Below, piece after piece: positions 1,121-62,630 of a stretch of DNA of 64,000 nt. This DNA is from Escherichia phage dhaeg. Location: sequence record MN850609.1; one strand, 5' to 3'. Position 1 is the stretch's first letter; every line of letters begins with the position of its first letter. The notes beneath the pieces are model-generated. The model was not told where the DNA came from. It did no database searches and saw only the letters and a program-made list of their open reading frames with translations. The position numbers and the translations under genes were made by a program.

Positions 1121-1164
1121 GTTTACACCTCCTTTAAACGTGATACTATAGACCTATCAAAACA
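1121..1164 (+). promoter_or_regulatory. Early promoter cassette (PeSL-like): -35 GTTTAC, N17, extended -10 TGaTACTAT, conserved AGACCTATCAA box
   Basis: GTTTAC 1121-1126, TACTAT 1144-1149; element repeated about 20 times in window. Confidence 0.6.
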
Positions 1165-1184
1165 ACAGAGTGAAGGAGAGTAAA

Positions 1185-1448
1185 ATGGATAATTATGGTG
1201 AATTGTTTAATTTCTTTATGAAATGCGTTCCTGAAGAATTTGGTGCTACTGTTAACGATATTAAGGTTATAGGTGATGACCATCCCATATTTGAAACCTA
1301 CGCAGTAATGGGTAATGACGATGGACAGTGGTATACCGTAAAGGTTGTGGTTAATATGTTTGCTGCCGAAGGGTACGTCAAATTGTCTACCAAAGTTTAT
1401 CACGATAACGATTTTGATGCGGAAGATTATTTCAATAATATGAAATAA
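1185..1448 (+). CDS. Hypothetical small protein
   Basis: ATG with SD GAAGGAGAG; track ORF 1170 starts at GTG inside the SD. Confidence 0.6.
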   Translation: MDNYGELFNFFMKCVPEEFGATVNDIKVIGDDHPIFETYAVMGNDDGQWYTVKVVVNMFAAEGYVKLSTKVYHDNDFDAEDYFNNMK

Positions 1449-1505
1449 TTGTTTACACGGGCTCATGATTGAGATATTATGAGCCCGTAATTTGAGGAGA
1501 GCATA

Positions 1506-1904
1506 ATGAATATCGAAGATAAAGAAATGCAAGAGTTGTATAATTCATTAACGCCTGAACAACAAAAAGCTGCCAAAGAATTAGAGAAAGCTCTTACTTT
1601 CAGCTTGGCAAAAACTGATTGGGCCGCCATGTATGAAGAAAAAAGGAGATCGGAAATTGAAGCTGTCGAGAGAAATGAATGGATTGTAGAAACCAAGATT
1701 TCTGATGGTGGTTGCTCTGTTGAGGTGTCAGCTGTGGTTAAAGGTACTCATGGTGAAAAATCACTAGGTTGGCATAATGAGGCAAACAAATATATTGTTC
1801 TCTCAACGTCAAAAACTTATGGTCAAAGGGTTCCTGTATCCAAAGCTATTATTAAGCAAGCTCAATGGGAAGCCAATGAAATTTGCCTAGCAAAAATGAA
1901 ATAA
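1506..1904 (+). CDS. Hypothetical protein
   Basis: ORF with SD GAGGAGAGCATAATG. Confidence 0.65.
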
Positions 1905-1906
1905 AA

Positions 1907-1937
1907 TGTTTACAACCCTCAGAGGACAGGGTATAAT
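1907..1937 (+). promoter_or_regulatory. Early promoter (GTTTAC -35, TATAAT -10 embedded in inverted repeat GAGGACA/TGTCCTC)
   Basis: GTTTAC 1907-1912, TATAAT 1932-1937 flanked by a 7-bp inverted repeat. Confidence 0.5.
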
Positions 1938-1980
1938 GTCCTCATGGATTACAAAATATCAACCGACTGAAGGAAATACT

Positions 1981-2574
1981 ATGAACACTTTAAAGAAAAT
2001 CGTTGAATTCATCCGTTCTAAACTGGGTACCGCAATGACTCAGAACCTGTCAATCGAAGACCAGTATACTAAAGCTGCTTCTACCCTGATTGATAAAATT
2101 ACTGAACTCCAGACTGCTCATGTTAAGTCTGTGAATGAAGAAAAACGTATTCGCGAGTTAGCGAATGAAAAAGACCAACTCGCCGCTTCAAAAGAGCGTG
2201 AAATTCGTAAACTGATTAAAGAAGGCGCCGATGTCCAGGTGCATGCTAAACTTGGCCTCCTTTATCGTCGTACAGCTAATCAACTTCGTAAGAAAGCAGA
2301 CGATTATATCGAAATGCGTAATGAAATTAAACTGAAGGTCAAGGAACTTGATGACTCTCGTCAAGAACTGGCTGTTAAGCTCGAGTACATCCGTGAAACT
2401 CGTAATATGGCTGCCCTTGGTATTGCTACTGCCGATGATGTGGTTGAAATCGCTGCACTGACTAAGATTGATATTGAAGATACCCTGCTGCGTGTAGAAA
2501 CGTTTAAAGGCCCACAAGTTGGAATGGATACGACTTCAGCCGATATCGAAGACTACATTAATTCACTTAAGTAA
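1981..2574 (+). CDS. Hypothetical coiled-coil protein
   Basis: ATG 1981 preceded by SD GAAGGAAAT; track start 1906 lies inside the promoter; heptad-rich, charged sequence. Confidence 0.6.
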
Positions 2575-2581
2575 TATTACC

Positions 2582-2604
2582 GGGAGACTTCGGTCTCCCT
2601 ATTT
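2582..2604 (+). terminator. Hairpin terminator (weak T-tract)
   Basis: GGGAGAC-TTCG-GTCTCCC then TATTT. Confidence 0.45.
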
Positions 2605-2622
2605 GGAGGAGAGGAGAATATT

Positions 2623-3177
2623 ATGAGTTTATATGATAACCTTATATCAAATATTGATTGGTTTAAAAATAGTGGTCTTTCCCATGAAACCAATTCAGTT
2701 CTTTATAGAATTCGCCAAGACCTAGGCTATTCAAACGATTTCTTAAGCAGAACATCTAGCCGTGGCGATACTACCAAATTACCTTTTATTTTTGCTTTAG
2801 CTGAAGACCTTTCTTTTGAAGATGCTTTGGAAATTATTGACGTAAATCTGGCTATTCAACGAGTGGAATTCGCTGGACTACGTTATTCAGTATATTCTTT
2901 AAATGAGAGCAATGATTGCGTGCTTCTTAATATGGCAGACGATGATTACCATTTAGTATGCTATGTGGCTTTAGAAAATGGTGATGTATTTGGAATGGTC
3001 GACCGCCGCCCAACTTATACTGATATTAAAAATTATGATAAAGATGAGCTTCTTGATTTGGCGGCTGAGTACACATTAGAGAGTCGTAAACGGAAACGTA
3101 AGCTTAATCGTTTTATTGCTGAATGTCGTGAATATGCTAAAGGGGTTCAAAATGCGAACGTTATATCTGCCAAGTAA
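2623..3177 (+). CDS. Hypothetical protein
   Basis: SD GGAGGAGAGGAGAATATTATG. Confidence 0.65.
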   Translation: MSLYDNLISNIDWFKNSGLSHETNSVLYRIRQDLGYSNDFLSRTSSRGDTTKLPFIFALAEDLSFEDALEIIDVNLAIQRVEFAGLRYSVYSLNESNDCVLLNMADDDYHLVCYVALENGDVFGMVDRRPTYTDIKNYDKDELLDLAAEYTLESRKRKRKLNRFIAECREYAKGVQNANVISAK

Positions 3178-7120: not shown

Positions 7121-7133
7121 TTGCATAAAACAG

Positions 7134-7172
7134 TGTACAAGGTCTATAGGTGTGATACTATAGACCTATCAA
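7134..7172 (+). promoter_or_regulatory. Early promoter cassette (variant -35 GTGTAC; TGaTACTATAGACCTATCAA)
   Basis: TACTAT 7156-7161, conserved box follows. Confidence 0.5.
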
Positions 7173-7198
7173 AACAACAGAGTGAAATGGAGAATAAA

Positions 7199-7411
7199 AT
7201 GAAACTTTCTAACCAAGCAATCAACATGTTAAACGAAGTTCGTGCAGCTGGTGCTAAATGTCTGATGGTTAACACTCGTGACGGTGACCTTCGTCAAGCA
7301 TTTGGTGAATTGAAATCTGCTGACCTGGTTAAATGTTCGGTTGGTATCGGTAATGCACTTCGTGTATCCTTATCCCCTAAAGGTAAAATGTACTTTTTCA
7401 ACAAAAAGTAA
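7199..7411 (+). CDS. Hypothetical small protein
   Basis: ATG 7199 after SD GGAGAA; track start overlaps promoter. Confidence 0.6.
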   Translation: MKLSNQAINMLNEVRAAGAKCLMVNTRDGDLRQAFGELKSADLVKCSVGIGNALRVSLSPKGKMYFFNKK

Positions 7412-7450
7412 TATACATTCTCGTAAGATATGTTATTATAGACCTATCAA
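7411..7450 (+). promoter_or_regulatory. Degenerate early promoter cassette (TGTTATTATAGACCTATCAA)
   Basis: -10 TATTAT 7434-7439 plus conserved AGACCTATCAA box. Confidence 0.4.
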
Positions 7451-7476
7451 AACAAATGAGTGAATTGGAGAATAAA

Positions 7477-7707
7477 ATGAAAGCCATCATGAGTGTTTTA
7501 GCCCTGAGCTTGGTTGCTTTAGCTGCAGTTCCTTTTATTGTTGATGTTGGAGACGAAACACAAGTTGAATCCTCAATCGTTGTCAGTAAAGATGGTACAT
7601 CGGTTAAGATCGGTAATAATCTCCATATGAATCCTAATGGTACTTTAGGTGTTCAGCTCGGTAACACATGTGTAAGCACAACTGGTAAAGTTAATACTTG
7701 CTTCTGA
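7477..7707 (+). CDS. Small secreted protein (signal peptide)
   Basis: ATG 7477 after SD GGAGAA; N-term MKAIMSVLALSLVALAAVP. Confidence 0.6.
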   Translation: MKAIMSVLALSLVALAAVPFIVDVGDETQVESSIVVSKDGTSVKIGNNLHMNPNGTLGVQLGNTCVSTTGKVNTCF

Positions 7708-9666: not shown

Positions 9667-9674
9667 TATAAATA
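9667..9674 (+). promoter_or_regulatory. T4-type late promoter TATAAATA for lysozyme gene, inside SD-sequestering hairpin region
   Basis: Exact TATAAATA; followed by inverted repeat CCTCC-TATAATCA-GGAGG that contains the SD of e. Confidence 0.55.
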
Positions 9675-9696
9675 CCTCCTATAATCAGGAGGTATT

Positions 9697-10185
9697 ATGG
9701 ATATTTTTGATATGTTACGTCAAGACGAAGGTCTTGATTTAAATCTTTATAAAGACACCGAAGGTTATTGGACTATTGGTATAGGCCAATTGATTACTAA
9801 GAACCCATCTAAAGATGTTGCTCGCGCTGAACTTGATAAGCTTATGGGTCGAGTTTGTAATGGTCGTATTACTATGGCTGAAGCCGAACAACTCTTTAAT
9901 CGTTCAGTAGAAAATGCCCGTAGAGCTATAACGCGCAATCCTAAATTGAAACCGGTTTATGATGTGCTAGACGAAGTTCGTCGTTGCGCATTGATTAATA
10001 TGGTCTTCCAAATGGGTGAAGCTGGTGTAGCGGGATTTACCAACTCTCTGCGTATGCTCCAACAAAAACGTTGGGATGACGCCGCAGTTAACCTGGCGCA
10101 GTCTCGTTGGTACAAGCAAACCCCTAATCGTGCCAAGCGTGTTATCGCCACCTTTAAAACAGGTACTTGGGCCGCTTATAGATAA
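9697..10185 (+). CDS. e: Endolysin, T4 lysozyme (GH24)
   Basis: Near-colinear with T4 lysozyme ([13 protein letters not shown]...[13 protein letters not shown]...; catalytic E11/D20/T26 context conserved). Confidence 0.95.
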
Positions 10186-10190: not shown

Positions 10191-10231
10191 GTTTACATCT
10201 CCGGTAGGCATGATACTATAGACCTATCAAC
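10191..10231 (+). promoter_or_regulatory. Early promoter cassette (GTTTAC-N17-TGaTACTATAGACCTATCAAC) with stem-loop arms ATCTCCGGTAG / CTACAGGAGAT
   Basis: GTTTAC 10191-10196, TACTAT 10214-10219; downstream arm includes SD of denV. Confidence 0.6.
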
Positions 10232-10245
10232 TACAGGAGATTAAA

Positions 10246-10662
10246 ATGACTCGTATCAACCTTACCTTAGTATCTGAATTGGCTGACCAACACTTAATGG
10301 CTGAATATCGTGAATTGCCACGTGTTTTCGGTGCAGTTCGAAAGCATGTTGCTAACGGTAAACGTGTTCGTGATTTTAAAATCAGCCCTACTTTTATCCT
10401 TGGTACAGGCCATGTCACATTCTTTTATGATAAGCTTGAATTTTTACGTAAGCGTCAAATCGAGCTTATAGCCGAATGTTTAAAACGTGGCTTTAATATC
10501 AAGGATACTACGGTCCAGGACATTAGTGATATTCCTCAGGAATTCCGTGGTGATTATGTTCTTCACGAAGCTTCTATCGCTATTTCACAAGCCCGTTTGG
10601 ATGAAAAAATTGCACAACGTCCTACCTGGTACAAACATTATGGTAAGGCGATTTATGCATAA
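10246..10662 (+). CDS. denV: Endonuclease V, pyrimidine-dimer DNA glycosylase
   Basis: Near-identical over full length to T4 endo V as I recall it ([35 protein letters not shown]...). Confidence 0.95.
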
Positions 10663-12320: not shown

Positions 12321-12361
12321 GTTTACATCTCCTGTAGACGTGGTACTATAGACCTATCAAC
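12321..12361 (+). promoter_or_regulatory. Early promoter cassette with stem-loop (ATCTCCTGTAG / CTACAGGAGAT perfect 11-bp arms)
   Basis: GTTTAC 12321-12326, TACTAT 12344-12349, conserved AGACCTATCAAC. Confidence 0.6.
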
Positions 12362-12377
12362 TACAGGAGATTACAAA

Positions 12378-12836
12378 ATGTCAGAAATTAATTCAGAAGT
12401 ATTCATCCGCCGCAACAAATTACGTCGTCAGTTCGAAACCGAATTTCGTGAACTTAACGCGTCCATCAAAAAAGCCGCCATTAAGAGCGGTGTCCCAGCT
12501 TTCTTTATTAAGTACTCTAATCACTTGTTGGACCGTGCTATCCAACGTGAAATTGACGAAAAATATGTTTTCTCTTTGTTCAAGAAGCTCCATAATCATG
12601 TTAAAGAAATCCATGAATTTTTAATCCAGGAGCCTCTTCCTGACATAGAATCTGAAATTGTCCCAGGTAAAGTGTATCGTCCACTGCGTCTCGAGATTAC
12701 CGATAAAACCTTATGGTTGGGTATGACCGTAGATCGTAAACATCCTGATAAAGGATATTCATTAAAATGTCGTATGGCATTTGTTAATTCTAAACGTTTA
12801 GAAGGTAAAACCAGCACGAAAGTAATCTATCTTTAA
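12378..12836 (+). CDS. Hypothetical protein (152 aa)
   Basis: SD CTACAGGAGATTACAAAATG. Confidence 0.65.
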   Translation: MSEINSEVFIRRNKLRRQFETEFRELNASIKKAAIKSGVPAFFIKYSNHLLDRAIQREIDEKYVFSLFKKLHNHVKEIHEFLIQEPLPDIESEIVPGKVYRPLRLEITDKTLWLGMTVDRKHPDKGYSLKCRMAFVNSKRLEGKTSTKVIYL

Positions 12837-16415: not shown

Positions 16416-16420
16416 TCAAA

Positions 16421-16446
16421 GGTCTCACTTCGGTGGGACCTTTTTT
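16421..16446 (+). terminator. Rho-independent terminator
   Basis: GGTCTCAC-TTCG-GTGGGACC followed by TTTTTT. Confidence 0.6.
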
Positions 16447-16455: not shown

Positions 16456-16496
16456 GTTTACATCCTCTAGGAACGTGATACTATAGACCTATCAAC
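16456..16496 (+). promoter_or_regulatory. Early promoter cassette (GTTTAC-N17-TGaTACTATAGACCTATCAAC)
   Basis: GTTTAC 16456-16461, TACTAT 16479-16484. Confidence 0.6.
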
Positions 16497-16512
16497 TAAT
16501 GAGGAGAATAAA

Positions 16513-16743
16513 ATGAAAACCATCACCAACCTGAAAGTTATCGATATCGCTAAAGCTTCTAAAGCACTTAAAGTTAAAGCTGAAGATTTTGAAAACGCTA
16601 CCTTTGCTATTATCGAACAAAACGGTAAAGTAACTGGTTTAGAAGTTTATGAAGCTACTAAGTTCCAATCACAGCCTAAAATGGTTATTGGTACTAAATC
16701 TGTAGCTATCGAAAAAGCTTTGGCATTATTCGAAAAAATTTAA
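16513..16743 (+). CDS. Hypothetical small protein
   Basis: SD CTAATGAGGAGAATAAAATG. Confidence 0.6.
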   Translation: MKTITNLKVIDIAKASKALKVKAEDFENATFAIIEQNGKVTGLEVYEATKFQSQPKMVIGTKSVAIEKALALFEKI

Positions 16744-19723: not shown

Positions 19724-19919
19724 AGAAGAAATCAAGGTTTTCCTGTCATATGGAAGACCTCATAAAACCTGTCGTTGGTATCTTGAAGTAGTTTGTAGAG
19801 AAACCGGTAGACGAATCAATTTCAAGTACGTATGCAAGCCTACGTCTAAGCAGATAAGACGGTGTATTAACTGGGCTATCAATAATATCCGCTTCCATAA
19901 TTATTGGAGCGCAATTTAG
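19695..19919 (+). CDS. Possible small basic Cys-containing protein with TTG start
   Basis: Open frame without ATG; TTG preceded by GAAGAGG SD; uncertain. Confidence 0.3.
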   Translation: MTTTTLITAKEEIKVFLSYGRPHKTCRWYLEVVCRETGRRINFKYVCKPTSKQIRRCINWAINNIRFHNYWSAI

Positions 19920-19940
19920 GAACCTTCGGGTTCCTTTTTT
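19919..19940 (+). terminator. Rho-independent terminator
   Basis: GGAACC-TTCG-GGTTCC followed by TTTTTTT. Confidence 0.65.
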
Positions 19941-19960: not shown

Positions 19961-20001
19961 GTTTACAACCTAGTAGAGCATGTTATTATGGACCTATCAA
20001 A
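19961..20001 (+). promoter_or_regulatory. Early promoter cassette (GTTTAC-N17-TGTTATTATGGACCTATCAA)
   Basis: GTTTAC 19961-19966, -10 TATTAT 19984-19989. Confidence 0.55.
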
Positions 20002-20026
20002 TCTACTGAGTGAAACGGAGAATATA

Positions 20027-21007
20027 ATGTTAACTATCAAAATCAACAAAGGTATCTATCGAGGTAATGAAATCTCTGGTACGTTCATGAGTTCAGGTAA
20101 AACCTGGTTCCCTAATAAAATTCATGAATCCGAAGCTCACCTCGGTGACGGCAAGGTATTTGTACAGATTGATGGTGTTGAACGTGGTGTGTGGGTGTTC
20201 AAATGTGACATCGAAATGGAAGGTGCTGAAGCTCCTGCAATGGTCACCGAATCCGCTGAAGAAATGAAACACCGCATCAACAAACGTTTTAAAGTAATGA
20301 ACATGATGACTAACGGAATCATCGATGGTAAAATTCGTTCCCTTATCATCTCTGGTGCCGCAGGTATTGGTAAAACATACTCTTTGGATAAAGCATTACA
20401 AAATGCCCATGAAAATGAAACTATCGAATATAAATCAATCAACGGAAAGATTAGTGGAATCGGTCTTTACGAGCAGCTTTGGAATAACCGCGGCCCTAAT
20501 AGTGTTCTTCTTATTGATGATGTTGATGTATTCTCTGACATGGATATCCTGAACCTTCTGAAAGCCGCATTGGATACTGGTGAAAAACGTAAGGTGTGTT
20601 GGAGCACTTCAAGTTCTTACCTCGACGATAAAAATATCGATAAAGAATTCGAATACGAAGGCACCATCGTGTTCATCACCAACGTTGATATTGACCGTGA
20701 ATTAGAGCGTGGAACTAAACTTGCTCCACACCTCCAGGCTTTAGTATCTCGTTCCGTTTATCTCGACTTGGGTGTTCACTCAAACGAAGAGATTATGGTT
20801 CGGGTTGAAGACGTTATCCTGTCCACTGATATGATGCAAAACCGAGGTCTGACCGATGCCGAGACTTATCAAGCTTTAGCATGGATGAAGGCTAATGTAT
20901 CTCGTCTTCGTAACGTATCATTACGTACAGCTCTTTATCTGGCGGACTTCATTGCCACCGATAAAAATGACTGGAGCGAAATCGCTGAAGTTACACTTCT
21001 GAAATAA
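20027..21007 (+). CDS. AAA+/P-loop ATPase-like protein
   Basis: Walker A GAAGIGKT, Walker B LLIDDVD; ATG 20027 after SD ACGGAGAA (track start lies in terminator/promoter). Confidence 0.65.
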   Translation: MLTIKINKGIYRGNEISGTFMSSGKTWFPNKIHESEAHLGDGKVFVQIDGVERGVWVFKCDIEMEGAEAPAMVTESAEEMKHRINKRFKVMNMMTNGIIDGKIRSLIISGAAGIGKTYSLDKALQNAHENETIEYKSINGKISGIGLYEQLWNNRGPNSVLLIDDVDVFSDMDILNLLKAALDTGEKRKVCWSTSSSYLDDKNIDKEFEYEGTIVFITNVDIDRELERGTKLAPHLQALVSRSVYLDLGVHSNEEIMVRVEDVILSTDMMQNRGLTDAETYQALAWMKANVSRLRNVSLRTALYLADFIATDKNDWSEIAEVTLLK

Positions 21008-21361: not shown

Positions 21362-21402
21362 GTTTACATCTCCAGTAGAAATGATACTATAGACCTATCA
21401 AC
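21362..21402 (+). promoter_or_regulatory. Early promoter cassette with stem-loop (CTCCAGTAG / CTAATGGAG)
   Basis: GTTTAC 21362-21367, TACTAT 21385-21390. Confidence 0.6.
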
Positions 21403-21416
21403 TAATGGAGGTTATC

Positions 21417-21941
21417 ATGAACGCTAAAGATATTTTTTCACTGATTAATTTTAACAATGGTAATTTCAAATCTGAAAAACAAAGCAAGTTCTTTAACGAC
21501 GTTGCTTGTGGTAATGAGATTACCGTATCTGGAGGAGAGATTTACAAAAGCCGTTGGAACTGGATTGTTATCATCGATTCAGTTGGTATTGTAGAGCTCT
21601 ATAAAAACACTAACAAAAAACGTACTCTTCACTGGAGTCGTGAAACCAATCAAGCTTATCAAGCCGAGCGTAATAAACGTTTAATGCCTACTGAATCTGA
21701 CCTGGCAAACGTTAAATCAGATATCGCTTATTTTGATAACTTGATTGCCGAACAACAAGCGGTTATTGATAAGTTTGACGAAATCAAAGCTTGTAAAGAG
21801 ATTCCTGAATTTATGCGGGAATCAGTAAACGAACAGTATGCCCTCACTTCAGGTCGTATCGAGCAGTACAAATCACAACGAGCTGAACGCCAAGCTCTGC
21901 TTCAGAAATTTGAAGAGCGTTTAAAGACGGTTCTCGCATAA
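21417..21941 (+). CDS. Hypothetical protein
   Basis: ATG 21417 after SD GGAGG. Confidence 0.6.
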   Translation: MNAKDIFSLINFNNGNFKSEKQSKFFNDVACGNEITVSGGEIYKSRWNWIVIIDSVGIVELYKNTNKKRTLHWSRETNQAYQAERNKRLMPTESDLANVKSDIAYFDNLIAEQQAVIDKFDEIKACKEIPEFMRESVNEQYALTSGRIEQYKSQRAERQALLQKFEERLKTVLA

Positions 21942-24022: not shown

Positions 24023-24052
24023 GTTTACATCCAAGGACGGATGGAGTATAAT
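24023..24052 (+). promoter_or_regulatory. Early promoter (GTTTAC -35, GAGTATAAT -10 within AAGGA/TCCTT inverted repeat)
   Basis: GTTTAC 24023-24028, TATAAT 24047-24052. Confidence 0.45.
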
Positions 24053-24080
24053 CCTTTTATCAACTACTGAGGAGAATATC

Positions 24081-26632: not shown

Positions 26633-26809
26633 ATGAAAACTAAATTAGTCTATACTGAAAAGTTAAATGGTGACAAGGTCTGGAAACTTCTTATCAAAGG
26701 AAGTCCTACCGACCAGTTTATGGCCACCTGTATAGGGTTGTATACCCGTCCTACCAAAAAGATGATTCGTCAATTTAAACGGTTGCATCGCTCATTTTAT
26801 AATGTTTAA
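26633..26809 (+). CDS. Possible small basic protein (58 aa)
   Basis: ORF below track cutoff. Confidence 0.4.
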   Translation: MKTKLVYTEKLNGDKVWKLLIKGSPTDQFMATCIGLYTRPTKKMIRQFKRLHRSFYNV

Positions 26810-26815
26810 TAAATA
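26808..26815 (+). promoter_or_regulatory. Late-promoter-like box AATAAATA upstream of gene 49, followed by CCCTTA...TAAGGG hairpin
   Basis: 7/8 match to TATAAATA; inverted repeat around SD. Confidence 0.35.
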
Positions 26816-26844
26816 CCCTTATCTAATAATGGTAAGGGTTTATT

Positions 26845-28288: not shown

Positions 28289-28305
28289 CACATGAGGAGA
28301 ACATT

Positions 28306-41494: not shown

Positions 41495-41536
41495 GTTTAC
41501 ATACCACATGGAACGTGGTAGTATCCTTCCTATCAA
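41495..41536 (+). promoter_or_regulatory. Early promoter cassette (GTTTAC-N18-TGgTAGTATCCTTCCTATCAAC)
   Basis: GTTTAC 41495-41500, -10 TAGTAT 41519-41524. Confidence 0.5.
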
Positions 41537-41554
41537 CTACATGAGGAAATTATA

Positions 41555-41791
41555 ATGGAAGCTTTAATCGTTAGTGCTGGTGTTTTAGGATTCGGTTCTC
41601 TGGTTATTATGTTCATTGGTTACTTTTTACCATGGATTCTGGCTCTTCTGCGAGGCACTCGTAGCAATGTCGGAATCTTCTTCCTTAATCTCCTGTTAGG
41701 ATGGACGATGATTGGTTGGGTAGTGGCTTTAATCTGGGCTATCGTCGCTGAACGTAAATCAAACGCACAAATCATTATCGTTAAACAATGA
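41555..41791 (+). CDS. imm: Superinfection immunity protein (Imm family membrane protein)
   Basis: Two TM helices; motif LPWILALLRG...NLLLGWTMIGWVVALIWA typical of Imm superinfection-immunity family; position after gene 43. Confidence 0.7.
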   Translation: MEALIVSAGVLGFGSLVIMFIGYFLPWILALLRGTRSNVGIFFLNLLLGWTMIGWVVALIWAIVAERKSNAQIIIVKQ

Positions 41792-48366: not shown

Positions 48367-49790
48367 AAACTATTTTGGCTCAACTGCTAGGCAATAGTGA
48401 TTATTTCACTAAGGTCTGGCCTTATATGAATGATTCTTATTTTGACCAGGGTCCGGCAAAGACCCTTTTCAAAGAAATAAAAAAACATGTCAATGAATAT
48501 AATGCGGTGCCTTCTAAAAATGCTTTGAGTATTGCATTAGATAACAGCACCCTTTCAGAAGTTGAACACCAAGGAGCTAAAGAGCTTTTAAATTCTCTGA
48601 ATGCAGGCCCTGAAGACCAAGAATGGTTGGTTAAAGAGACAGAGAAATATGTTCAGAAGGCAGCGATGTATAATGCCACTTCAAAAATTATTGAAATTCA
48701 AACTAATGCCGACCTTCCGGTTGAGCAACAAAATAGAAAACTCCCAGGTATTGGTGCCATTCCGGATATCATGCGCGATGCATTATCGATTTGTTTCGAT
48801 TCTGAATTAGGCCATGACTGGATGGATGACTATGAAGAACGTTTTAAAAGTTATTCTGATAAAGCCCGTAAGGTTCCATTCCGTCTTAATATTCTGAATA
48901 AGATTACCAAGGGTGGCGCTGAGTTTGGTACTGAAAACGTATTGTTGGCAGGAACAAACGTAGGTAAGTCTCTTGGACTATGTTCATTGGCTGCTGATTA
49001 CCTTCAATCCGGTTATGATGTTCTTTATATCTCCATGGAGATGGCAGAGGAAGTATGTGCTAAGCGTATCGATGCCAACCTTCTGGATGTATCACTGGAT
49101 GATATTGATGATGGTCACGTCTCATGGCCTGAATATAAAGCTAAGATGGATAAGTGGCGTTCAACTGCTACTTTAGGTCGTTTAAAGATTAAACAGTACC
49201 CTACTGGTGGTGCTAATGCCGATACATTCCGTGCATTATTAAACGAATACAAGCTCAAACAAAACTTTGTCCCACAGGTCGTTATCGTCGACTACTTGGC
49301 TATCTGTGCTTCATCTCGTACGAAAGTTTTCTCTGAAAACAGTTACGGATTGATTAAGATGGTTGCCGAAGAACTACGTGGCCTTGCAGTAGAGAAGAAA
49401 TTATTGCTGTGGACTGCAGCCCAGACTACTCGTGGTGCGAATGTTGCGGCCGAAATCGATATGGCCGATATTGCTGAATCCTTTGGTATTGCACATACGG
49501 CAGACTTCATGTTAGGTGTGGTCGAGACAGAAGAGTTTGCTCAGATGGGTATGCAGATGGTTAAGCAGCTTAAATCTCGTTATGGCGATAAGAGCTACTA
49601 CAACAAATTTAAGATTGGTGTTAAGAAAGGAAACCAGCGTTGGTATGAAGTTGAAGACGATTCTAACCCAGGTCCAGTGAACACCGTTCGTGAGGCTACA
49701 GGTGAAATGAACCGCCAAGCAGAGGTCAATCGCCAGTCGCGTGTTAATAGAAGCGATTTAGACGATTTAGCAGCATCTATCAAATTTTAA
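48360..49790 (+). CDS. 41: Replicative DNA helicase gp41 (DnaB-like)
   Basis: Colinear with T4 gp41 (VETILAQL...KVWPYM..., Walker A GTNVGKS); GTG start after SD AAGAGG. Confidence 0.9.
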   Translation: MVETILAQLLGNSDYFTKVWPYMNDSYFDQGPAKTLFKEIKKHVNEYNAVPSKNALSIALDNSTLSEVEHQGAKELLNSLNAGPEDQEWLVKETEKYVQKAAMYNATSKIIEIQTNADLPVEQQNRKLPGIGAIPDIMRDALSICFDSELGHDWMDDYEERFKSYSDKARKVPFRLNILNKITKGGAEFGTENVLLAGTNVGKSLGLCSLAADYLQSGYDVLYISMEMAEEVCAKRIDANLLDVSLDDIDDGHVSWPEYKAKMDKWRSTATLGRLKIKQYPTGGANADTFRALLNEYKLKQNFVPQVVIVDYLAICASSRTKVFSENSYGLIKMVAEELRGLAVEKKLLLWTAAQTTRGANVAAEIDMADIAESFGIAHTADFMLGVVETEEFAQMGMQMVKQLKSRYGDKSYYNKFKIGVKKGNQRWYEVEDDSNPGPVNTVREATGEMNRQAEVNRQSRVNRSDLDDLAASIKF

Positions 49791-49810
49791 GGAGCTTCGG
49801 CTCCTTTTTT
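49791..49810 (+). terminator. Rho-independent terminator
   Basis: GGAGC-TTCG-GCTCC followed by TTTTTT. Confidence 0.65.
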
Positions 49811-49819: not shown

Positions 49820-49860
49820 GTTTACTTCTCCTGTAGGCATGATACTATAGACCTATCAAC
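49820..49860 (+). promoter_or_regulatory. Early promoter cassette (GTTTAC-N17-TGaTACTATAGACCTATCAAC)
   Basis: GTTTAC 49820-49825, TACTAT 49843-49848; arms TTCTCC / GGAGAA. Confidence 0.6.
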
Positions 49861-50190
49861 TTGGAGAACAAAATGAAAACCATCGACTGTAAAGCAGAAT
49901 ATAAAGTGTATTATCATGGAAGTTGTAGTGTTGCTAATATTGGTAATATGCTTTGTCCTCCTGAGGAAACAGGAGTTCTGTCTGAAACTGGTCGTAAGAA
50001 AAACCTAAATCGTGTGTTCTTTACTGAGGACATTGGTTTGGCTAAGATTTATGCTGGACGAGCTGCTCGTTCGGTGGGAGGAGAACCTCGTCTTTATCGT
50101 GTAATTGCTCCGGTAGATGTGGTTTGTTTAAATGATACCAAAGGCGCTACGGTTTATCACGCTGAATGGGCCTTCTGTGAGGAAATCTAA
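49861..50190 (+). CDS. Hypothetical protein
   Basis: SD TTGGAGAACAAAATG. Confidence 0.6.
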   Translation: MENKMKTIDCKAEYKVYYHGSCSVANIGNMLCPPEETGVLSETGRKKNLNRVFFTEDIGLAKIYAGRAARSVGGEPRLYRVIAPVDVVCLNDTKGATVYHAEWAFCEEI

Positions 50191-50776: not shown

Positions 50777-50818
50777 GTTTACATCGGTCTATGGTAGTGA
50801 TACTATAGACCTATCAAC
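50777..50818 (+). promoter_or_regulatory. Early promoter cassette (GTTTAC-N18-TGaTACTATAGACCTATCAAC)
   Basis: GTTTAC 50777-50782, TACTAT 50801-50806. Confidence 0.6.
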
Positions 50819-50834
50819 TAATGAGGAGTTAAAA

Positions 50835-51128
50835 ATGAAAAAGTTATTAATCGCAGCAATCCTTACAGTAGCATCATGTGGCACGGCTCCGGTAACTGCC
50901 GGATTGGATAAAGACCTTTGTGAATGGTCTATGACTGCAGACCAAGAGTCAGTTGAACATCAGATTTACGCTGATATCATGAACATCACTAAACGCGACC
51001 GTCCTGATATGGTTAAAGAAGTATCTGACCAATTGGCTTCTAGTGGTGTTATGCAGTATAACTATGTTCTGTACTGTGATGCTAATTTCGATAACAAAAA
51101 TATTGTTAAAGAGGTGACAGGTGAATAA
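50835..51128 (+). CDS. sp: Spackle periplasmic protein
   Basis: 97 aa, signal peptide, colinear with T4 Sp as recalled (..DKDLCEWSMTADQ..VMQYNYVLYCD..). Confidence 0.75.
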   Translation: MKKLLIAAILTVASCGTAPVTAGLDKDLCEWSMTADQESVEHQIYADIMNITKRDRPDMVKEVSDQLASSGVMQYNYVLYCDANFDNKNIVKEVTGE

Positions 51129-51561: not shown

Positions 51562-51562
51562 T

Positions 51563-54211: not shown

Positions 54212-54217
54212 TTATAA

Positions 54218-55860: not shown

Positions 55861-56093
55861 TGAATTGGCTAACAAATATACCTACATCGGCATTAGATAT
55901 AGACCGTAAACAAGCTCGTAAGGAAATCGAGCAAAAAAATATTCAGGCAAAAGCTCCTAAGATTATGACCAAGGCGCCGGAAATAAAAAGCTCTTATCAA
56001 CCAAAAAGCTCTTATACTTCATATACCCAATCCTTAACAGGCCAAGCTGCTGACATTGCAGTGTTTGGCGTCCCACTTGGTGTGTTTAAGTAG
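55860..56093 (+). CDS. Hypothetical small protein
   Basis: TAATGA junction; alternative start 55839. Confidence 0.45.
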   Translation: MNWLTNIPTSALDIDRKQARKEIEQKNIQAKAPKIMTKAPEIKSSYQPKSSYTSYTQSLTGQAADIAVFGVPLGVFK

Positions 56094-56120
56094 TTTACAC
56101 CTCCTCCCTTCATGTTATAA
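56094..56120 (+). promoter_or_regulatory. Early promoter (GTTTAC -35, TGTTATAAT -10), followed by SD-containing hairpin ATGACCTC...GAGGTCAT
   Basis: GTTTAC 56094-56099, TATAAT 56115-56120. Confidence 0.5.
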
Positions 56121-56145
56121 TGACCTCTAAATCACTGGAGGTCAT

Positions 56146-56715
56146 ATGAACATCGAACAAAAATGTCTTTATCAAGACCGAATCAATTCTAAATTTTCAA
56201 AATCTGAACAAGCGTTGTTAGAGAAATGTCTGGATGCCAAAAAAGACCCTAACTTCCATTATGACCTAGACAAACTAGTTCGTAAGCATGTTACTTCGGT
56301 CGTTCCGGTAGAGCTTTATCGTGGGATTACTCCAAGAGAACTTGAGCAACTTGAAGTTCTTTCTGTCGGATGCCAGTGGTCTCCCGGCCGTGTTACTTCT
56401 TTTAGTACACAATACTCTCAGGCTCGTCAGTTCGCAGGGGCGTGGGAATATGGAACTAAAACCATCTTAAGTCTCAGGAATGCACCGTTCATTTTCGACT
56501 ACTACAATCATGCTATCGACCTTGTTCTTGCAGGGAATGTGGACGAACTTGAAATAGATGAAACCCGGATAGACCTCTATGATATGGTCGAAACTGAATG
56601 TGAGTTCATGGTCTCTAGTCTATCACGGTTCGAGATTGTGGAAATCGAAACTATCAAAAGAGACCCATACGAAATCGAGTACAAAATAATTCATTTAAAA
56701 ATGTTAGATTTTTAG
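56146..56715 (+). CDS. ADP-ribosyltransferase (ModA/ModB-like)
   Basis: R-S-E type motifs: LYRGI, SFSTQ, E-x-E (ECEF); paralog of next gene. Confidence 0.65.
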   Translation: MNIEQKCLYQDRINSKFSKSEQALLEKCLDAKKDPNFHYDLDKLVRKHVTSVVPVELYRGITPRELEQLEVLSVGCQWSPGRVTSFSTQYSQARQFAGAWEYGTKTILSLRNAPFIFDYYNHAIDLVLAGNVDELEIDETRIDLYDMVETECEFMVSSLSRFEIVEIETIKRDPYEIEYKIIHLKMLDF

Positions 56716-56756
56716 TTTACAGGCAAGGATGCTTGTGGTACTATCTTTCTATCAAC
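56715..56756 (+). promoter_or_regulatory. Early promoter cassette (GTTTAC-N18-TGgTACTATCTTTCTATCAAC)
   Basis: GTTTAC 56715-56720, TACTAT 56739-56744. Confidence 0.5.
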
Positions 56757-56769
56757 TGAGGAGAATAAT

Positions 56770-57384
56770 ATGTTATATCCAAATCATAAATTATCAGAGT
56801 TCTATGACAATGTTAAATGTGATGATTTCCGTGAAAACATTCAGGGTGAAATAGACGGGCAGTACTCTGATTTAGAACAGAGTGTCCTCTGGCAGTGCAT
56901 GGAAAATAAACCTGATTCTATCCAAGAAACTTTGAACAAAATCATTCGTAAGAATCTAACTTCTGTAGTGCCTGACAAACTGTACCGTGGAATTTCTAAG
57001 AAAACTTTGAAATACCTCGAATCGGTAGGATGTGTTGGTGCCACAATTGAATTTGACAGAGTAATGAGCTTCTCTAAAGATTTTAAGGTGGCCCGTAACT
57101 TTGCTTCATATAATTTTTACGGAACCAAAAATATTTTCTGTATTAATGATGCACCTTTTGCATTTGATTACCAGGAAGCAATCTTTAAAATGATTTGTGG
57201 CGCTCCTCCCGAAGAGTTCAACGGGCCATATCCAGAAATAACTCGTACTTCAAACTTGCAATTAGTAAACGATGAAGATGAGATGATGTTCCCTGCGGGA
57301 ACTACGCTACGCGTAGACTCTATTGAGAGAGTTTGTGGATGGCAAGATTATACATTATGGAATCTTTCCGTTCTTTCTTACTGA
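56770..57384 (+). CDS. ADP-ribosyltransferase (ModA/ModB-like)
   Basis: LYRGIS, MSFSKD, acidic catalytic region; paralog of previous gene. Confidence 0.65.
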   Translation: MLYPNHKLSEFYDNVKCDDFRENIQGEIDGQYSDLEQSVLWQCMENKPDSIQETLNKIIRKNLTSVVPDKLYRGISKKTLKYLESVGCVGATIEFDRVMSFSKDFKVARNFASYNFYGTKNIFCINDAPFAFDYQEAIFKMICGAPPEEFNGPYPEITRTSNLQLVNDEDEMMFPAGTTLRVDSIERVCGWQDYTLWNLSVLSY

Positions 57385-57453: not shown

Positions 57454-57494
57454 GTTTACTTTATTAAGCAACATGATACTATAGACCTATCAAC
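57454..57494 (+). promoter_or_regulatory. Early promoter cassette (GTTTAC-N17-TGaTACTATAGACCTATCAAC)
   Basis: GTTTAC 57454-57459, TACTAT 57477-57482. Confidence 0.6.
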
Positions 57495-57522
57495 TAATCG
57501 TCCGTAAGATGAGAAAAATATC

Positions 57523-58272
57523 ATGCCTACTATTAAAACTAACGATGAATTTGAGTTAAAGGTTTACAACCGCCGCAAACACACCAAAGCTTCTGCTTGT
57601 AAACGCGGTAAGGACTTCAATCTGTCTAGTAAGTATGTTCGTAGACTTCTCGAACAAAAAGTGTGCGCTTATTCGGGCGAGTACTTTGATGAAAATTCAG
57701 TTAATGACAAGATTTCATTTGAACGTTTTAACAACGATATCGGCTATATTGAGGGTAATGTAATCCCAGTTAAAGTTAAGTATAACAGCTTACGTGCCGA
57801 TTTGTCCCTTGATGAACTGAAACGTGCTCAGACTCGTTTAGCAGTTCGTATTTCAGGTAGTTCTAAAATGCCTAATAGTTTTAAAGTTACTCCTGATAAC
57901 TATTATAAAATCCGTAAAATCGTTAAAAATATAAAAGATACCCAAAGAGGTCTTAAAAAACGTGAAAAACGTCTTAAAGACCTTATTAAATCAGGAGCTA
58001 CTGATAAGACTCCTTCTGTTATCGCAGTTAAGGCCCGTATCCACGGTTCTAACGCTTCAATCGGTACTATGGAAAAAGGTCTTAAATCTTTAATTGGTGG
58101 GCCTGATTGGCGTGTCAAGTTTAAATTGTCTGAAGCAGAAACGCGTTACGATATGTATGATAAAATTATTCAAGGTCTGGAGCGTTTAGAACACCTTTCT
58201 TTTATTGACAAATTGAAGTTGAAAAAAGGTCTTCCATTGAATGCTTCAATTTTTTCACTGATTAGAGGTTAA
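57523..58272 (+). CDS. Hypothetical basic protein (249 aa; at the T4 srd position)
   Basis: Position upstream of dda; no motif confirmed. Confidence 0.6.
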   Translation: MPTIKTNDEFELKVYNRRKHTKASACKRGKDFNLSSKYVRRLLEQKVCAYSGEYFDENSVNDKISFERFNNDIGYIEGNVIPVKVKYNSLRADLSLDELKRAQTRLAVRISGSSKMPNSFKVTPDNYYKIRKIVKNIKDTQRGLKKREKRLKDLIKSGATDKTPSVIAVKARIHGSNASIGTMEKGLKSLIGGPDWRVKFKLSEAETRYDMYDKIIQGLERLEHLSFIDKLKLKKGLPLNASIFSLIRG

Positions 58273-60819: not shown

Positions 60820-60823
60820 AAGT

Positions 60824-60864
60824 GTTTACTTCTCCTCATGACATGATACTATAACCCTATCAAC
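60824..60864 (+). promoter_or_regulatory. Early promoter cassette with perfect 11-bp stem arms TTCTCCTCATG / CATGAGGAGAA flanking the -10
   Basis: GTTTAC 60824-60829, TACTAT 60847-60852. Confidence 0.6.
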
Positions 60865-60878
60865 ATGAGGAGAACAAA

Positions 60879-61382
60879 ATGAAAATTTATCGAGTCGAGT
60901 CATCGTTCAGTATCTTAGATAATAGTGATGCTATCGCAATTACTCGCCAGCAATGCCGCCAATTAACACCTTATAGAGGCTCATTTGATGAATGGAGCGA
61001 AGGCTGGTTATTGGAAGTAGGTTTTGACAGGCCTAATTTTAGACACCATCATACTAATAATAAAAGCATCCCACTACCAAGTCAAGATGAATTGTTGGTT
61101 AAAAATTCTAATGCAGTAATTAAAACCAAATTCGAACATGAAGATTATAAAGGTGTAGATAACTATATCCCTGGTTGGTTTGTTAACCTCTACCATTTTG
61201 CTTTTGCCAGCGAGTATGATATGATGCGCTGGTTCACTCGTGAAGAGCGTGCGGAATTATCTTCTAAAGGATTCTACCTTGCTGTTTACGAAATCCCTGA
61301 AGATGAGGTTGTCATTGGTGACCGCCAAGTAATGTTCCGCAAATCCCATGCTGAACTCGTAGATTTTATTGAAATGAGATAA
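60879..61382 (+). CDS. Hypothetical protein
   Basis: SD CATGAGGAGAACAAAATG. Confidence 0.6.
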   Translation: MKIYRVESSFSILDNSDAIAITRQQCRQLTPYRGSFDEWSEGWLLEVGFDRPNFRHHHTNNKSIPLPSQDELLVKNSNAVIKTKFEHEDYKGVDNYIPGWFVNLYHFAFASEYDMMRWFTREERAELSSKGFYLAVYEIPEDEVVIGDRQVMFRKSHAELVDFIEMR

Positions 61383-61384
61383 TT

Positions 61385-61936
61385 ATGAAATTTAATTATA
61401 ATCCTAAATACACACCGAACCCAGCAGCCAAATTGATTGATTTTGATGTTTTAAGCACTTATGTGGCCCCTATTGAACCATTAGAAATTAAGGAAACCAC
61501 TATGACTACTCAGACTATCGAAATCGGCAAAACCTACAAACTGGTTGAACCTGAAATTAAAACTAAGGCCTTGATTTCTGGTTATAAAACTCTGACTGAT
61601 GTTTTTGGCGAAGGCGAATTTATTGTTGAAGAATTCGCCAAAAGTGACTGGTTTACTAAATCTTACGTAATCCACGGCCGCCGGTTAGATAATAATAGAA
61701 TAGAGAAAACCCTAGTCTATGAAGCTGAATTTGGGCTTTTCCGTGAAGTCAGAGTCGAACAAGACCCTACCGACCTGTTGTGTGCTGCTGTGGCTATCCG
61801 TCGTCCTTTTGATAATCCTATCTGTGGTTGGGTAACAGACCAATGGATTGAAGATGGTGTTGAACTGCTGAACGTTGTACATGCTGGTGATTTTAGCATA
61901 GTACCTCGTAGTGCAGTGGTTAATGTATTGAATTAA
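61385..61936 (+). CDS. Hypothetical protein, paralog A (C-terminal GWVTDQWIEDGVEL domain)
   Basis: Shares C-terminal motif with 62010-62576. Confidence 0.6.
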   Translation: MKFNYNPKYTPNPAAKLIDFDVLSTYVAPIEPLEIKETTMTTQTIEIGKTYKLVEPEIKTKALISGYKTLTDVFGEGEFIVEEFAKSDWFTKSYVIHGRRLDNNRIEKTLVYEAEFGLFREVRVEQDPTDLLCAAVAIRRPFDNPICGWVTDQWIEDGVELLNVVHAGDFSIVPRSAVVNVLN

Positions 61937-61938
61937 TA

Positions 61939-61967
61939 GTTTACTTTATCGAGAGCCATGTTATAAT
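61939..61967 (+). promoter_or_regulatory. Early promoter (GTTTAC-N17-TATAAT) with -10 inside inverted repeat GAGAGCCAT/ATGGCTCTC
   Basis: GTTTAC 61939-61944, TATAAT 61962-61967. Confidence 0.5.
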
Positions 61968-62009
61968 GGCTCTCATGGATTATAAACCTTTAACCAAGAG
62001 AGAAAAATT

Positions 62010-62576
62010 ATGATTACTATTTCCGATATCGGCAGTATCGTTCGTGTATCCAAAAAGTCTCGTTCAAAAGCTGCGGGCAGTTTAGTTGAAGTTGTTAGCA
62101 TCCAACTTAAAGAAGGTGTCAGTGAAGAAAATTATGAAGTAAAAGTTCGTATCATTCCTAAAAATCGCCAGACTGAAACTCAATTCGGTTATGTGCGTGC
62201 TAAATTCTTGGAATCGACTGAATTTACCGGATACATCGCTCCTGTAGTTGAAGAAGTTGAATCCCATGATGGGTATGTATGTGAAAGCAATGATATCCGT
62301 GGCGTAGTAGCTCAAGACATTGAAACTATTGACCAATCTCATGTCGGCGTTGATTTCAAATGGAAATTAGGTCGAGGAGTGTGTTTTAATACTCCTAAAC
62401 CGTTCAAATATGTTGACGAACCTTTTGGTACTTACGAAACCAGTAGCATGTCTGGTTACATCACAGACCAGTGGGTTGAAGGTGGCGTTAAGCTCTATAA
62501 CATCGTGTTCCTTGGAACCTTTAAAGTGGTTCCTGAAAGCTTTATTGTTGAATATGCTAATATTCATCGTGCATAA
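62010..62576 (+). CDS. Hypothetical protein, paralog B (C-terminal GYITDQWVEGGVKL domain)
   Basis: SD AGAGAGAAAAATTATG; shares C-terminal motif with 61385-61936. Confidence 0.6.
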   Translation: MITISDIGSIVRVSKKSRSKAAGSLVEVVSIQLKEGVSEENYEVKVRIIPKNRQTETQFGYVRAKFLESTEFTGYIAPVVEEVESHDGYVCESNDIRGVVAQDIETIDQSHVGVDFKWKLGRGVCFNTPKPFKYVDEPFGTYETSSMSGYITDQWVEGGVKLYNIVFLGTFKVVPESFIVEYANIHRA

Positions 62577-62588
62577 AGTTTAAAAACA

Positions 62589-62630
62589 GTATACAATACG
62601 GTAGGGTAGTGATACTATTACCCTATCAAC
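62589..62630 (+). promoter_or_regulatory. Early promoter cassette variant (GTATAC ... TGaTACTATTACCCTATCAAC)
   Basis: TACTAT 62613-62618; conserved CCTATCAAC. Confidence 0.5.

Follow-up and report, generated by a model that had tools for sequence, protein, structure and literature searches.

We analyzed a 64,000-nt stretch of the genome of Escherichia phage dhaeg (MN850609.1; the window), which contains 22 copies of an early-promoter cassette. By their sequence, the cassettes are T4-type early sigma-70 promoters of the composite kind known as promoter-early stem-loops (PeSLs). Sequence comparisons indicate that their stems are under selection. For about one-third of the cassettes, masking of the Shine-Dalgarno (SD) sequence by the promoter spacer on read-through RNA is well supported by predicted structure, covariation, and conservation. 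SD masking is a prediction and is not a general property of the repeat. The best explanation of the whole appears to be a self-insulating early cassette with one hairpin arm borne by its promoter. We give this explanation a probability of about 0.65.

The cassette runs from A/T-rich DNA through a GTTTAC -35 element, a spacer of 17 to 18 nt, TGn, a -10 element (TACTAT or TATAAT), a conserved block, and a GGAG-type SD to an ATG. The block after the -10 is usually AGACCTATCAA(C/A), and AGACCT followed by ATCAA(C/A) spans the predicted transcription start. GTTTAC is exact in 18 of the 22 cassettes, and TG lies one base ahead of the -10 in most. The 20 to 25 nt 5' of the -35 form an A/T-rich, UP-like region (e.g., aaaaataatttcacaaagtt and tataaaaaatcggtaaaagt).

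All 22 cassettes are intergenic and on the + strand, with an SD and start codon 10 to 37 nt downstream. They were located by a broader scan and inspection. A preliminary description of this DNA had counted about 20 copies, and all twelve coordinates that it named are real ones. Exact matches to GTTTAC-N15-19-TACTAT number 10 in the window (0.05 expected), and TACTATAGACCTATCAAC with at most three mismatches has 13 matches (0.06 expected). Both sets are entirely on the + strand. A covariance model built from eight cassettes finds 16 of the 22 again, also on the + strand. In the complete genome of the 97% relative CLBP2, 40 of 40 stringent matches were on one strand. T4 early promoters number roughly 40, which is close to this count.

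Stem classes and selection

The cassettes fall into three classes. In the first, the spacer or discriminator pairs with the cassette's own SD (1121, 10191, 12321, 21362, 28248, 56093, and 60824; more weakly 16456, 24023, and 49820). In the second, the spacer pairs with the -10/discriminator, or an inverted repeat surrounds the -10 (1451, 1908, 7133, 29369, 50777, 61939, and 62589); 56715 belongs here with a hairpin that overlaps the -35. Members of the third have no strong stem (19961, 41495, 57454, and 7411). Eight window cassettes contain a promoter-internal hairpin. Six of the 22 mask the SD by strict count, and up to nine do so when weaker stems are included.

The preliminary description had called the spacer frequently complementary to the SD, which is real for this subset and overstated for the 21 to 22 copies as a whole. 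The two SD stems that it quoted are exact 11-bp complements with 5' arms at 12327 and 60830. Their 3' arms lie at 12361 and 60864 and had been placed 2 to 3 nt off, at 12358 and 60866. It correctly saw the -10 inside an inverted repeat at 1908 (given as 1907), 29369, and 61939, an arrangement also found at 1451. It missed a third variant, in which the spacer pairs with the -10/discriminator CTATAGACC (7133, 50777, and 62589).

The cassettes are listed below. Paired values are predicted probabilities that the SD is unpaired, on the cassette's own transcript and then on read-through RNA. Class-B cassettes have their stem around TATAAT.

1121..1187, + strand: cassette 5' of e.8; SD-masking stem CTCCTTTA/TGAAGGAG; SD 0.87 to 0.01.
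1451..1508, + strand: cassette 5' of an orf133-like gene; 13-bp promoter-internal hairpin around the -10, ACGGGCTCATGAT/ATTATGAGCCCGT, z -5.1.
1908..1983, + strand: class-B cassette 5' of e.6; stem GAGGACA/TGTCCTC around TATAAT, then GGATTACAA.
7133..7201, + strand: cassette with a 10-bp promoter-internal hairpin, AGGTCTATAG/CTATAGACCT, -15.4 kcal/mol, z -4.0; SD an exact RegB strong site.
7411..7479, + strand: degenerate cassette; -35 ATATAC, no strong stem; with the open reading frame (ORF) at 7456-7707 it forms a cassette-plus-ORF insertion relative to JS98.
10191..10248, + strand: cassette 5' of denV; SD-masking stem ATCTCCGGTAG/CTACAGGAGAT with one mismatch, -14.7 kcal/mol; SD 0.38 to 0.17.
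12321..12380, + strand: cassette 5' of regB; perfect 11-bp SD-masking stem ATCTCCTGTAG (12327-12337)/CTACAGGAGAT (12361-12371), -18.3 kcal/mol, z -3.3; SD 0.56 to 0.00.
16456..16515, + strand: cassette with a weak CCTC/GAGG complement only; terminator directly upstream; the downstream ORF is replaced in JS98, starting immediately past the cassette.
19961..20029, + strand: cassette 5' of nrdC.10; no strong stem.
21362..21419, + strand: cassette 5' of nrdC.8; SD-masking stem with one mismatch in the window, its core perfect in six relatives (CTCCAGTAG/CTACTGGAG); SD 0.32 to 0.02 in the window.
24023..24083, + strand: cassette 5' of nrdC.4; discriminator pairs weakly with the SD.
28248..28308, + strand: cassette 5' of 55.6; 14-position SD-masking stem TCTCCTCACGTGTT/AACACATGAGGAGA, -21.6 kcal/mol, z -5.7; SD 0.59 to 0.00.
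29369..29440, + strand: class-B cassette 5' of 55.2; stem GGGACC/GGTCCC around TATAAT, then GGATTATAA; T4 motB carries the same stem.
41495..41557, + strand: cassette 5' of imm, just past gene 43; no strong spacer stem.
49820..49875, + strand: cassette 5' of orf34/dmd; 6-bp TTCTCC/GGAGAA complement only; SD an exact RegB site.
50777..50837, + strand: cassette 5' of sp; 11-bp promoter-internal hairpin GGTCTATGGTA/TACTATAGACC, z -2.8.
56093..56148, + strand: cassette 5' of modB; the -10/discriminator arm masks the SD and AUG, ATGACCTCT/TGGAGGTCAT; SD 0.24 to 0.02.
56715..56772, + strand: cassette 5' of modA; hairpin overlaps the -35 and spacer.
57454..57525, + strand: cassette 5' of srd; no promoter stem, likewise in T4.
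60824..60881, + strand: cassette 5' of motB.2; perfect 11-bp SD-masking stem TTCTCCTCATG (60830-60840)/CATGAGGAGAA (60864-60874), -19.4 kcal/mol, z -7.0; SD an exact RegB strong site, 0.58 to 0.00.
61939..62012, + strand: class-B cassette 5' of motB; stem GAGAGCCAT/ATGGCTCTC around TATAAT, then GGATTATAA; -17.5 kcal/mol, z -5.9.
62589..62651, + strand: cassette 5' of cef; 12-position promoter-internal hairpin GGTAGGGTAGTG/TATTACCCTATC, z -3.7.

Folds from the -35 to the ATG of the 22 cassettes have a mean minimum free energy z score of -2.5 against dinucleotide shuffles, and 11 of the 22 are below -2. Stem classes were also counted by a strict automatic rule, with shuffled spacers as the control.

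Window, 21 cassettes: SD-masking 6, promoter-internal 7, 5' untranslated region 1, none 7; spacer-shuffled 1.5, 1.5, 2.5, and 15.6.
CLBP2 genome, 41 cassettes, from a scan that required at least 12 of 20 A/T upstream of the -35: SD-masking 10, promoter-internal 15, 5' untranslated region 3, none 13; spacer-shuffled 2.9, 3.7, 5.4, and 29.

Strict stems (SD-masking plus promoter-internal) were present in 13/21 window cassettes and 25/41 CLBP2 cassettes, against 3.0 and 6.6 after spacer shuffling. The upstream part of a cassette pairs better with its own leader than with mismatched leaders; 12 of 20,000 permutations reach the observed mean. We also scored a fixed-register 11-bp stem in 61 distinct cassettes from related phages, which were selected solely by the conserved core and not for structure. 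The distribution was bimodal. At least 10 pairs formed in 16 cassettes, 8 to 9 pairs in none, and at most 7 in the rest.

Covariation, on which the preliminary description had made its stems depend, was found. In eight SD-masking cassettes, 98.9% of cells pair, and both sides have changed at 5 of the 11 pairs. None of 500 shuffles matches this (0/500). Slid registers in the same eight cassettes give 37 to 59% pairing. The positions within stems that are not Watson-Crick pairs comprise 23 G.T or T.G and 6 A.C or C.A. This excess points to pairing of sense-strand RNA and not to a symmetric DNA cruciform.

Stems recur at the same genes in other lineages, a comparison free of hand-picking. The cross-genus sample consisted of the regB and motB.2 loci, pattern scans, and two T4 stretches; a locus search based on Dda gave almost only close relatives. 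The regB arms are ATCTCCTGTAG/CTACAGGAGAT in the window, TTCTCCTCTAG/CTAGAGGAGAA in the orthologue L148, a 15-bp TTTCTCCTCTTTATG/CATAAAGAGGAGAAA in L221, and TTCCTCTTGACTG/CAGTTAAGAGGAG in T4. The motB.2 SD is masked in four lineages by four different arm pairs, one of which uses the discriminator and not the spacer. The modB SD is masked in both T4 and the window by the same design with different sequences. The T4 denV cassette is almost identical to that of the window, including TACTATAGACCTATCAAC and the stem. Among close orthologues, the spacer positions that form the arm are nearly invariant, and three adjoining bases vary. The early promoter of T4 ipII (L249, T4 65.7 kb) has a 14-bp hairpin, CTCCTAGAATTGTGA/TCACAATTCTAGGA, across its -10.

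Class-B stems exist in four complementary versions, each followed by the same GGATTAYAA. In the window, every class-B cassette has this block at about +3 to +11 (1946-1954, 29407-29415, and 61977-61985). It is also present in relatives and is altered in T4 motB (GGAGTATAAAA). A late-promoter reading of the GGATTAYAAA block (TATAAAT-like) was dropped since it fits just one of the three window copies. A leaderless mini-ORF starting at the ATG of CATGGATTA was dropped since copy 29369 has ACG.

The SD-type stems have loops of 23 to 29 nt, and by geometry their 5' arm lies upstream of the predicted +1. The preliminary description proposed that read-through RNA would sequester the SD and that RNA from the local promoter would not. 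Folding of the two RNAs, which it had suggested, closes the SD in six copies and not in all. In those six, the predicted probability that the SD is unpaired falls from 0.24-0.87 on promoter-proximal RNA to 0.00-0.02 on read-through RNA. The proposal is well supported for about one-third of the copies by compensatory changes, the bimodal distribution of pairing, the drop in predicted accessibility, and conservation in T4. In another third, the stem lies upstream of +1. The median accessibility of the SD on read-through RNA is 0.18 for cassette genes versus 0.42 for 71 other window genes (Mann-Whitney p=0.0015). Gene e and gene 49 are among the few noncassette genes with a buried SD in this screen, and they served as positive controls.

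9667..9699, + strand: gene e; late promoter TATAAATA and hairpin CCTCCT/AGGAGG that masks the ribosome-binding site (RBS), -14.1 kcal/mol.
26807..26847, + strand: gene 49; RBS-masking hairpin, -14.2 kcal/mol.

The SD-masking cassette stems (-12.1 to -21.6 kcal/mol) are as stable as those of e (-14.1) and 49 (-14.2) or more so.

Promoter assignment and genomic setting

The genes downstream of cassettes are orthologues of T4 early genes, including denV, regB, imm, sp, modA/B, srd, motB, and cef. Orthologous T4 cassettes were seen at motB.2, modB, motB, srd, regB, and denV. Promoter activity is predicted from the consensus and from this orthology to T4, and the position of +1 is likewise a prediction. 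The T4 motB.2 promoter is, by its map position, presumably the one studied as P8.1. A generic sigma-70 consensus scan of the window gave 63 sites versus 59 in shuffles; only the phage-specific motif separates the cassettes from background. An Rfam scan gave no match at the cassettes and matched only two tRNAs. Two tRNA genes lie at the left edge of the window (48-119 and 127-199), and their counterpart in dhabil is annotated tRNA-Arg, Asn, Met.

The strong RegB/S1 cleavage consensus is GG*AGRAYARAA (PMC3014915). The window has six exact matches to GGAGRAYARAA. Five are cassette SDs (7189, 7467, 16503, 49863, and 60869; 0.52 expected), and the sixth is on the minus strand at 22949-22959. Because five of the six are cassette SDs, the cassette 3' module may be read as a RegB-sensitive RBS, as expected of early T4 messages. 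The srd 5' leader (CGTCCGTAAGATGAGAAAAATAT, 57494-57522) is nearly base for base as in T4, although the srd cassette is stemless. This leader may be a separate regulatory element.

The first 12 kb of the window is 98.5% identical to Escherichia phage dhabil, 97% to CLB_P2, and 94% to JS98, all of which are Dhakavirus. The window is the early, hyperplastic arc of a Dhakavirus (JS98-like, T4-like myovirus) genome. Its gene order, from synteny with JS98 and dhabil, is e.8/e.6, e, denV, regB, tk, nrdC, 49, 55, 47-43, imm, uvsX, 41, 61, soc, modB/A, srd, dda, dexA, motB, cef, and 39.1. The early genes are on the + strand. Cassettes had been said to flank most of the small genes of unknown function. 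They precede about 1 gene in 6 (22 cassettes versus about 134 genes annotated across the homologous part of dhabil), and the claim does not hold.

Proposed insulation, recombination, and alternative readings

Five canonical terminators with a CTTCGG (UUCG) tetraloop and a T-run were found. Two are at 54216-54235 and 63741-63756. The other three abut cassettes:

16418..16443, + strand: UUCG-loop intrinsic terminator directly 5' of cassette 16456.
19918..19935, + strand: UUCG-loop terminator directly 5' of cassette 19961.
49789..49806, + strand: UUCG-loop terminator directly 5' of cassette 49820.

Cassettes 16456, 19961, and 49820 are the only ones in the window directly preceded by a canonical terminator, and all three have weak or no stems. 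In CLBP2, 1 cassette has both a stem and a terminator, 28 have only a stem, 5 have only a terminator, and 7 have neither (Fisher p=0.005). From this exclusion, terminators, promoter-internal hairpins, and SD-masking hairpins look like alternative insulators from upstream RNA. The stems were rejected as ordinary intrinsic terminators: they lack U-tracts, and a terminator scan flags only 56717, marginally.

Under the self-insulating reading, host sigma-70 RNA polymerase would read the GTTTAC/TGn -10 promoter immediately after infection. The spacer sequence is free to vary and would encode the 5' hairpin arm, upstream of +1. Because of this arm position, only RNA arriving from a promoter farther upstream could form the hairpin. 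For about one-third of the cassettes (e.8, denV, regB, nrdC.8, 55.6, modB, and motB.2), the 3' arm would be the SD of the cassette's gene. The masked gene could then not be translated from read-through RNA, which would probably also be shielded from RegB, and the promoter-proximal transcript would leave the SD open. Protein from the masked gene would be made only in a brief immediate-early pulse. In another third or so, the 3' arm would be the -10/discriminator, and the hairpin just 5' of +1 most likely attenuates incoming transcripts or stabilizes their 3' ends, effects that have been reported for the stem-loops of PeSLs. A few cassettes would have a canonical terminator in place of the hairpin. 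As a by-product, 45 to 60 bp of near-identical sequence would provide portable homology for the gain, loss, and swap of ORFs. The effects on translation, termination, and RegB cleavage are all model predictions. A wider design rule for T4-like phages, in which the early-promoter spacer or discriminator doubles as an anti-SD arm and the first gene is translated only from own-promoter RNA, is put forward tentatively, at odds somewhat below even.

Indels were called against dhabil, JS98, CLBP2, and fragments of five other relatives. Of 60 distinct indel or replacement events, 13 touch a cassette, and about 3 would be expected at random positions (about 4-fold fewer). The strongest indel hot spot is the IP locus at 10191, with six distinct events at or within about 20 nt. 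JS98 has ipIII and orf114 between two cassette copies there. At the same place the window carries a single hybrid of the two, whose junction is within GTTTACATCTCC; indels of this kind are the diagnostic signature of PeSLs. The denV stem mismatch (G at 10203, in the arm 10197-10207) adjoins this junction, which suggests that recombination can transiently damage stems. The weaker closure of the denV SD follows from this mismatch in the window copy. At 19961, JS98 and another relative (L091) carry one more ORF, bordered on each side by a near-identical cassette copy. In one relative, 1457-1893 is deleted, from cassette 1451 to about 15 nt 5' of cassette 1908. The junction homology of this deletion is the A/T-rich upstream DNA plus GTTTAC. 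Positions 7413-7704 are a clean cassette-plus-ORF insertion.

The spacer of cassette 49820 sits at denV in JS98 and has therefore been shuffled. Identical spacers are joined to different leaders among relatives, and exchange has therefore occurred within the conserved core. The sequence GAGGAAAATATTATG, an RBS repeat with no promoter, has 7 copies on the + strand (2611, 5968, 6149, 7706, 16745, 21993, and 29426; 0.02 expected), and several indels have it as their right-hand junction. The ORF flanked by the 5968 and 6149 copies is precisely missing from four relatives. Any conserved intergenic motif serves as homology, and not promoter cassettes alone. Window segments absent from at least one of dhabil, CLBP2, and JS98 are 3161-3483, 12108-12314, 14197-14399, 29772-30002, and 53810-53934. 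They are mostly single small ORFs placed precisely between their neighbors, and 12108-12314 abuts the regB cassette.

Several observations weigh against the self-insulating cassette. Because SD masking is confined to 6 to 9 of the 22 copies, it is not the function that all copies share. Copies 10191 and 21362 each have a stem mismatch, and stem 28248 has a C.A mismatch that would be a wobble only on the opposite strand. The formal covariation count used eight sequences chosen by hand. A U-tract is missing from the promoter-internal stems, and an attenuator role for them would lean on a published reporter assay in phi1. The upstream stop codon lies 9 to 12 nt ahead of the 5' arm, and a ribosome terminating there might unfold part of the stem, with translational coupling in place of masking. 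The reading also depends on a predicted +1. Cassettes are not overrepresented at the ends of indels when gene boundaries in general are the reference (13/60 events versus about 30% expected; 22 of about 134 boundaries carry a cassette).

The original PeSL reading treats all of the stems, including those that reach the SD, as attenuators or terminators of upstream RNA polymerase and makes any effect on translation incidental. A phi1 PeSL stem-loop between a promoter and lacZ cut expression about as much as rrnB T1 (PMC2839356), but enzyme activity was the readout, in which effects on termination, translation, and stability are not told apart. Attenuation predicts the mutual exclusion of stems and terminators equally well, and about one-third of the stems stop short of +1, too far upstream to cover an RBS. 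Yet no stem is followed by a U-tract, and true UUCG-loop terminators with T-runs are found elsewhere. The 3' arm of the SD-type stems is always on the SD, even when orthologues alter the arm or shift the 5' arm to the discriminator, and termination needs no such placement. We consider attenuation by all stems unlikely. Another possibility is that the SD stems mainly shield the GGAG of long transcripts from RegB, so that polycistronic middle-period RNA survives, rather than block translation. The cassette SDs fit the strong RegB consensus, and the SD of regB itself is masked in the window and T4. RNA structure protects from RegB, and most GGAG-bearing middle transcripts are resistant (PMC3014915). 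Against such a role, T4 can grow without RegB (PMC3014915), although many lineages retain the stems. A paired SD is also closed to ribosomes, which makes protection an added consequence and not an alternative, and stems of the modB and 55.6 types also cover the AUG or bases other than GGAG. Shielding as the main role seems quite improbable.

The inverted repeats could instead act as DNA, as cruciforms or single-strand hairpins bound by a recombination or replication protein, and in this way turn the cassettes into hot spots of recombination. Such a role was considered by the authors who described PeSLs (PMC2839356), and repeat-flanked indels do occur at cassettes. Plain homology explains those indels equally well, and the stemless 15-nt RBS repeat also bounds a deletion. 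The arms differ in sequence between cassettes and offer no common protein site. A two-strand cruciform would not tolerate an asymmetry of 23 G.T to 6 A.C, and the exclusion with transcription terminators points to RNA. A role in DNA is very unlikely. Finally, the complementarity might be a functionless by-product of cassette duplication and of chance CTCC in spacers opposite the GGAG of the SD. Many copies are recent paralogues, recombination in the core shuffles spacers and leaders, and some cassettes are stemless. Against this, the complementarity extends over 9 to 15 bp, far past CTCC/GGAG. Both arms have changed in compensation at 5 of 11 positions, and the distribution of pairing is bimodal. 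Spacer shuffling leaves 4 to 5 times fewer stems, and stems occur at the same T4 genes with different sequences. We give a functionless origin almost no credence.

Relation to known systems

T4 early promoters and PeSL cassettes are already known, and the repeat itself is not new. PeSLs are composites of a promoter, a stem-loop, and an SD/ATG in T4-type phages (Arbiol et al. 2010, PMC2839356). That paper also notes PeSL-like sequences next to gene 43 of JS98; cassette 41495 occupies this place in the window. PeSLs have also been described for T4/PST and KVP40/nt-1 (Comeau et al. 2014, PMC4122927) and are not specific to the RB49-type phages for which the preliminary description named them. Its proposal that the cassettes are PeSL-type recombination modules holds in part. 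The cassettes fit the PeSL definition, with A/T-rich DNA, a strong sigma-70-type early promoter, a stem-loop that adjoins or overlaps the promoter, and an SD/ATG that belongs to the gene that follows. Some ORF insertions, deletions, and replacements between close relatives lie between direct copies. A preferential association with indels is less clear, as window cassettes touch more indels than random positions would and are no commoner at indel boundaries than at gene boundaries generally.

The -10-in-stem and -35-to-+1 stem classes of the window match described PeSL subclasses. The five stem positions of PeSLs (upstream of the -35, on the -35, between -35 and -10, on the -10, and between -10 and +1) are occupied in 8 of the 22 window copies: 1451, 1908, 7133, 29369, 50777, 56715, 61939, and 62589. 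Three more copies have an upstream terminator hairpin, and the 6 to 9 stems that reach the SD fall outside the described positions. Published PeSL stems lie at or before the transcription start and were read as terminators or attenuators, whereas about one-third of the window cassettes place the 3' arm on the SD, 25 to 30 nt past the -10. The window stems are also not of the GN-loop-CN type of RB49/phi1, and this phage group adds the conserved block AGACCTATCAAC after the -10.

The cassettes resemble T4 early promoters (Hinton 2010, PMC2988021) in their GTTTAC -35, TGn -10, A/T-rich upstream DNA, number (about 40 per genome), location on the early strand, and orthologous positions. That review treats the promoters as recognition sites for RNA polymerase with "additional regions of consensus" and does not mention the spacer as a hairpin arm. 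Pairing of the SD/AUG on transcripts that start far upstream, with translation licensed by an internal late promoter, is experimentally established for T4 genes such as e and 49; the reviews consulted name only e, soc, 49, and I-TevI, all with late promoters (Uzan and Miller 2010, PMC3014915). The window cassettes are predicted to share the pairing on upstream transcripts and an internal promoter that starts inside or after the 5' arm. They differ in that the 5' arm lies within the promoter itself, in the spacer or discriminator. The internal promoter of the T4 genes is late and delays expression, whereas that of the window is early and would confine expression to an immediate-early pulse, a mirror image. 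The cassette SDs match the RegB/S1 sites of early T4 mRNAs exactly or nearly, and regB is itself a cassette gene. This likeness concerns only the 3' module, and the link between stems and RegB resistance is a suggestion of ours. A literature search found no description of an early-promoter version of RBS masking; single stems (T4 regB, denV) may be mentioned in the JS98 genome paper or the 2003 T4 review.

What is added here is that most early promoters of this phage group, and their T4 orthologues, appear to carry a selected RNA stem whose 5' arm is inside the promoter. The same stems are present at T4 regB, denV, motB.2, and modB, and the prediction is directly testable in the model phage with standard reporters. 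If true in vivo, it would tie translation to promoter choice and provide a mechanism for immediate-early-only expression. RegB, ModB, MotB.2, and DenV would be confined to the immediate-early pulse. It would give a reason why the same GGAG sites are RegB sensitive in early RNA and resistant in longer middle-period RNA. It would also make promoter-plus-ORF cassettes independent of context, so that they could be shuffled between genomes without misexpression.

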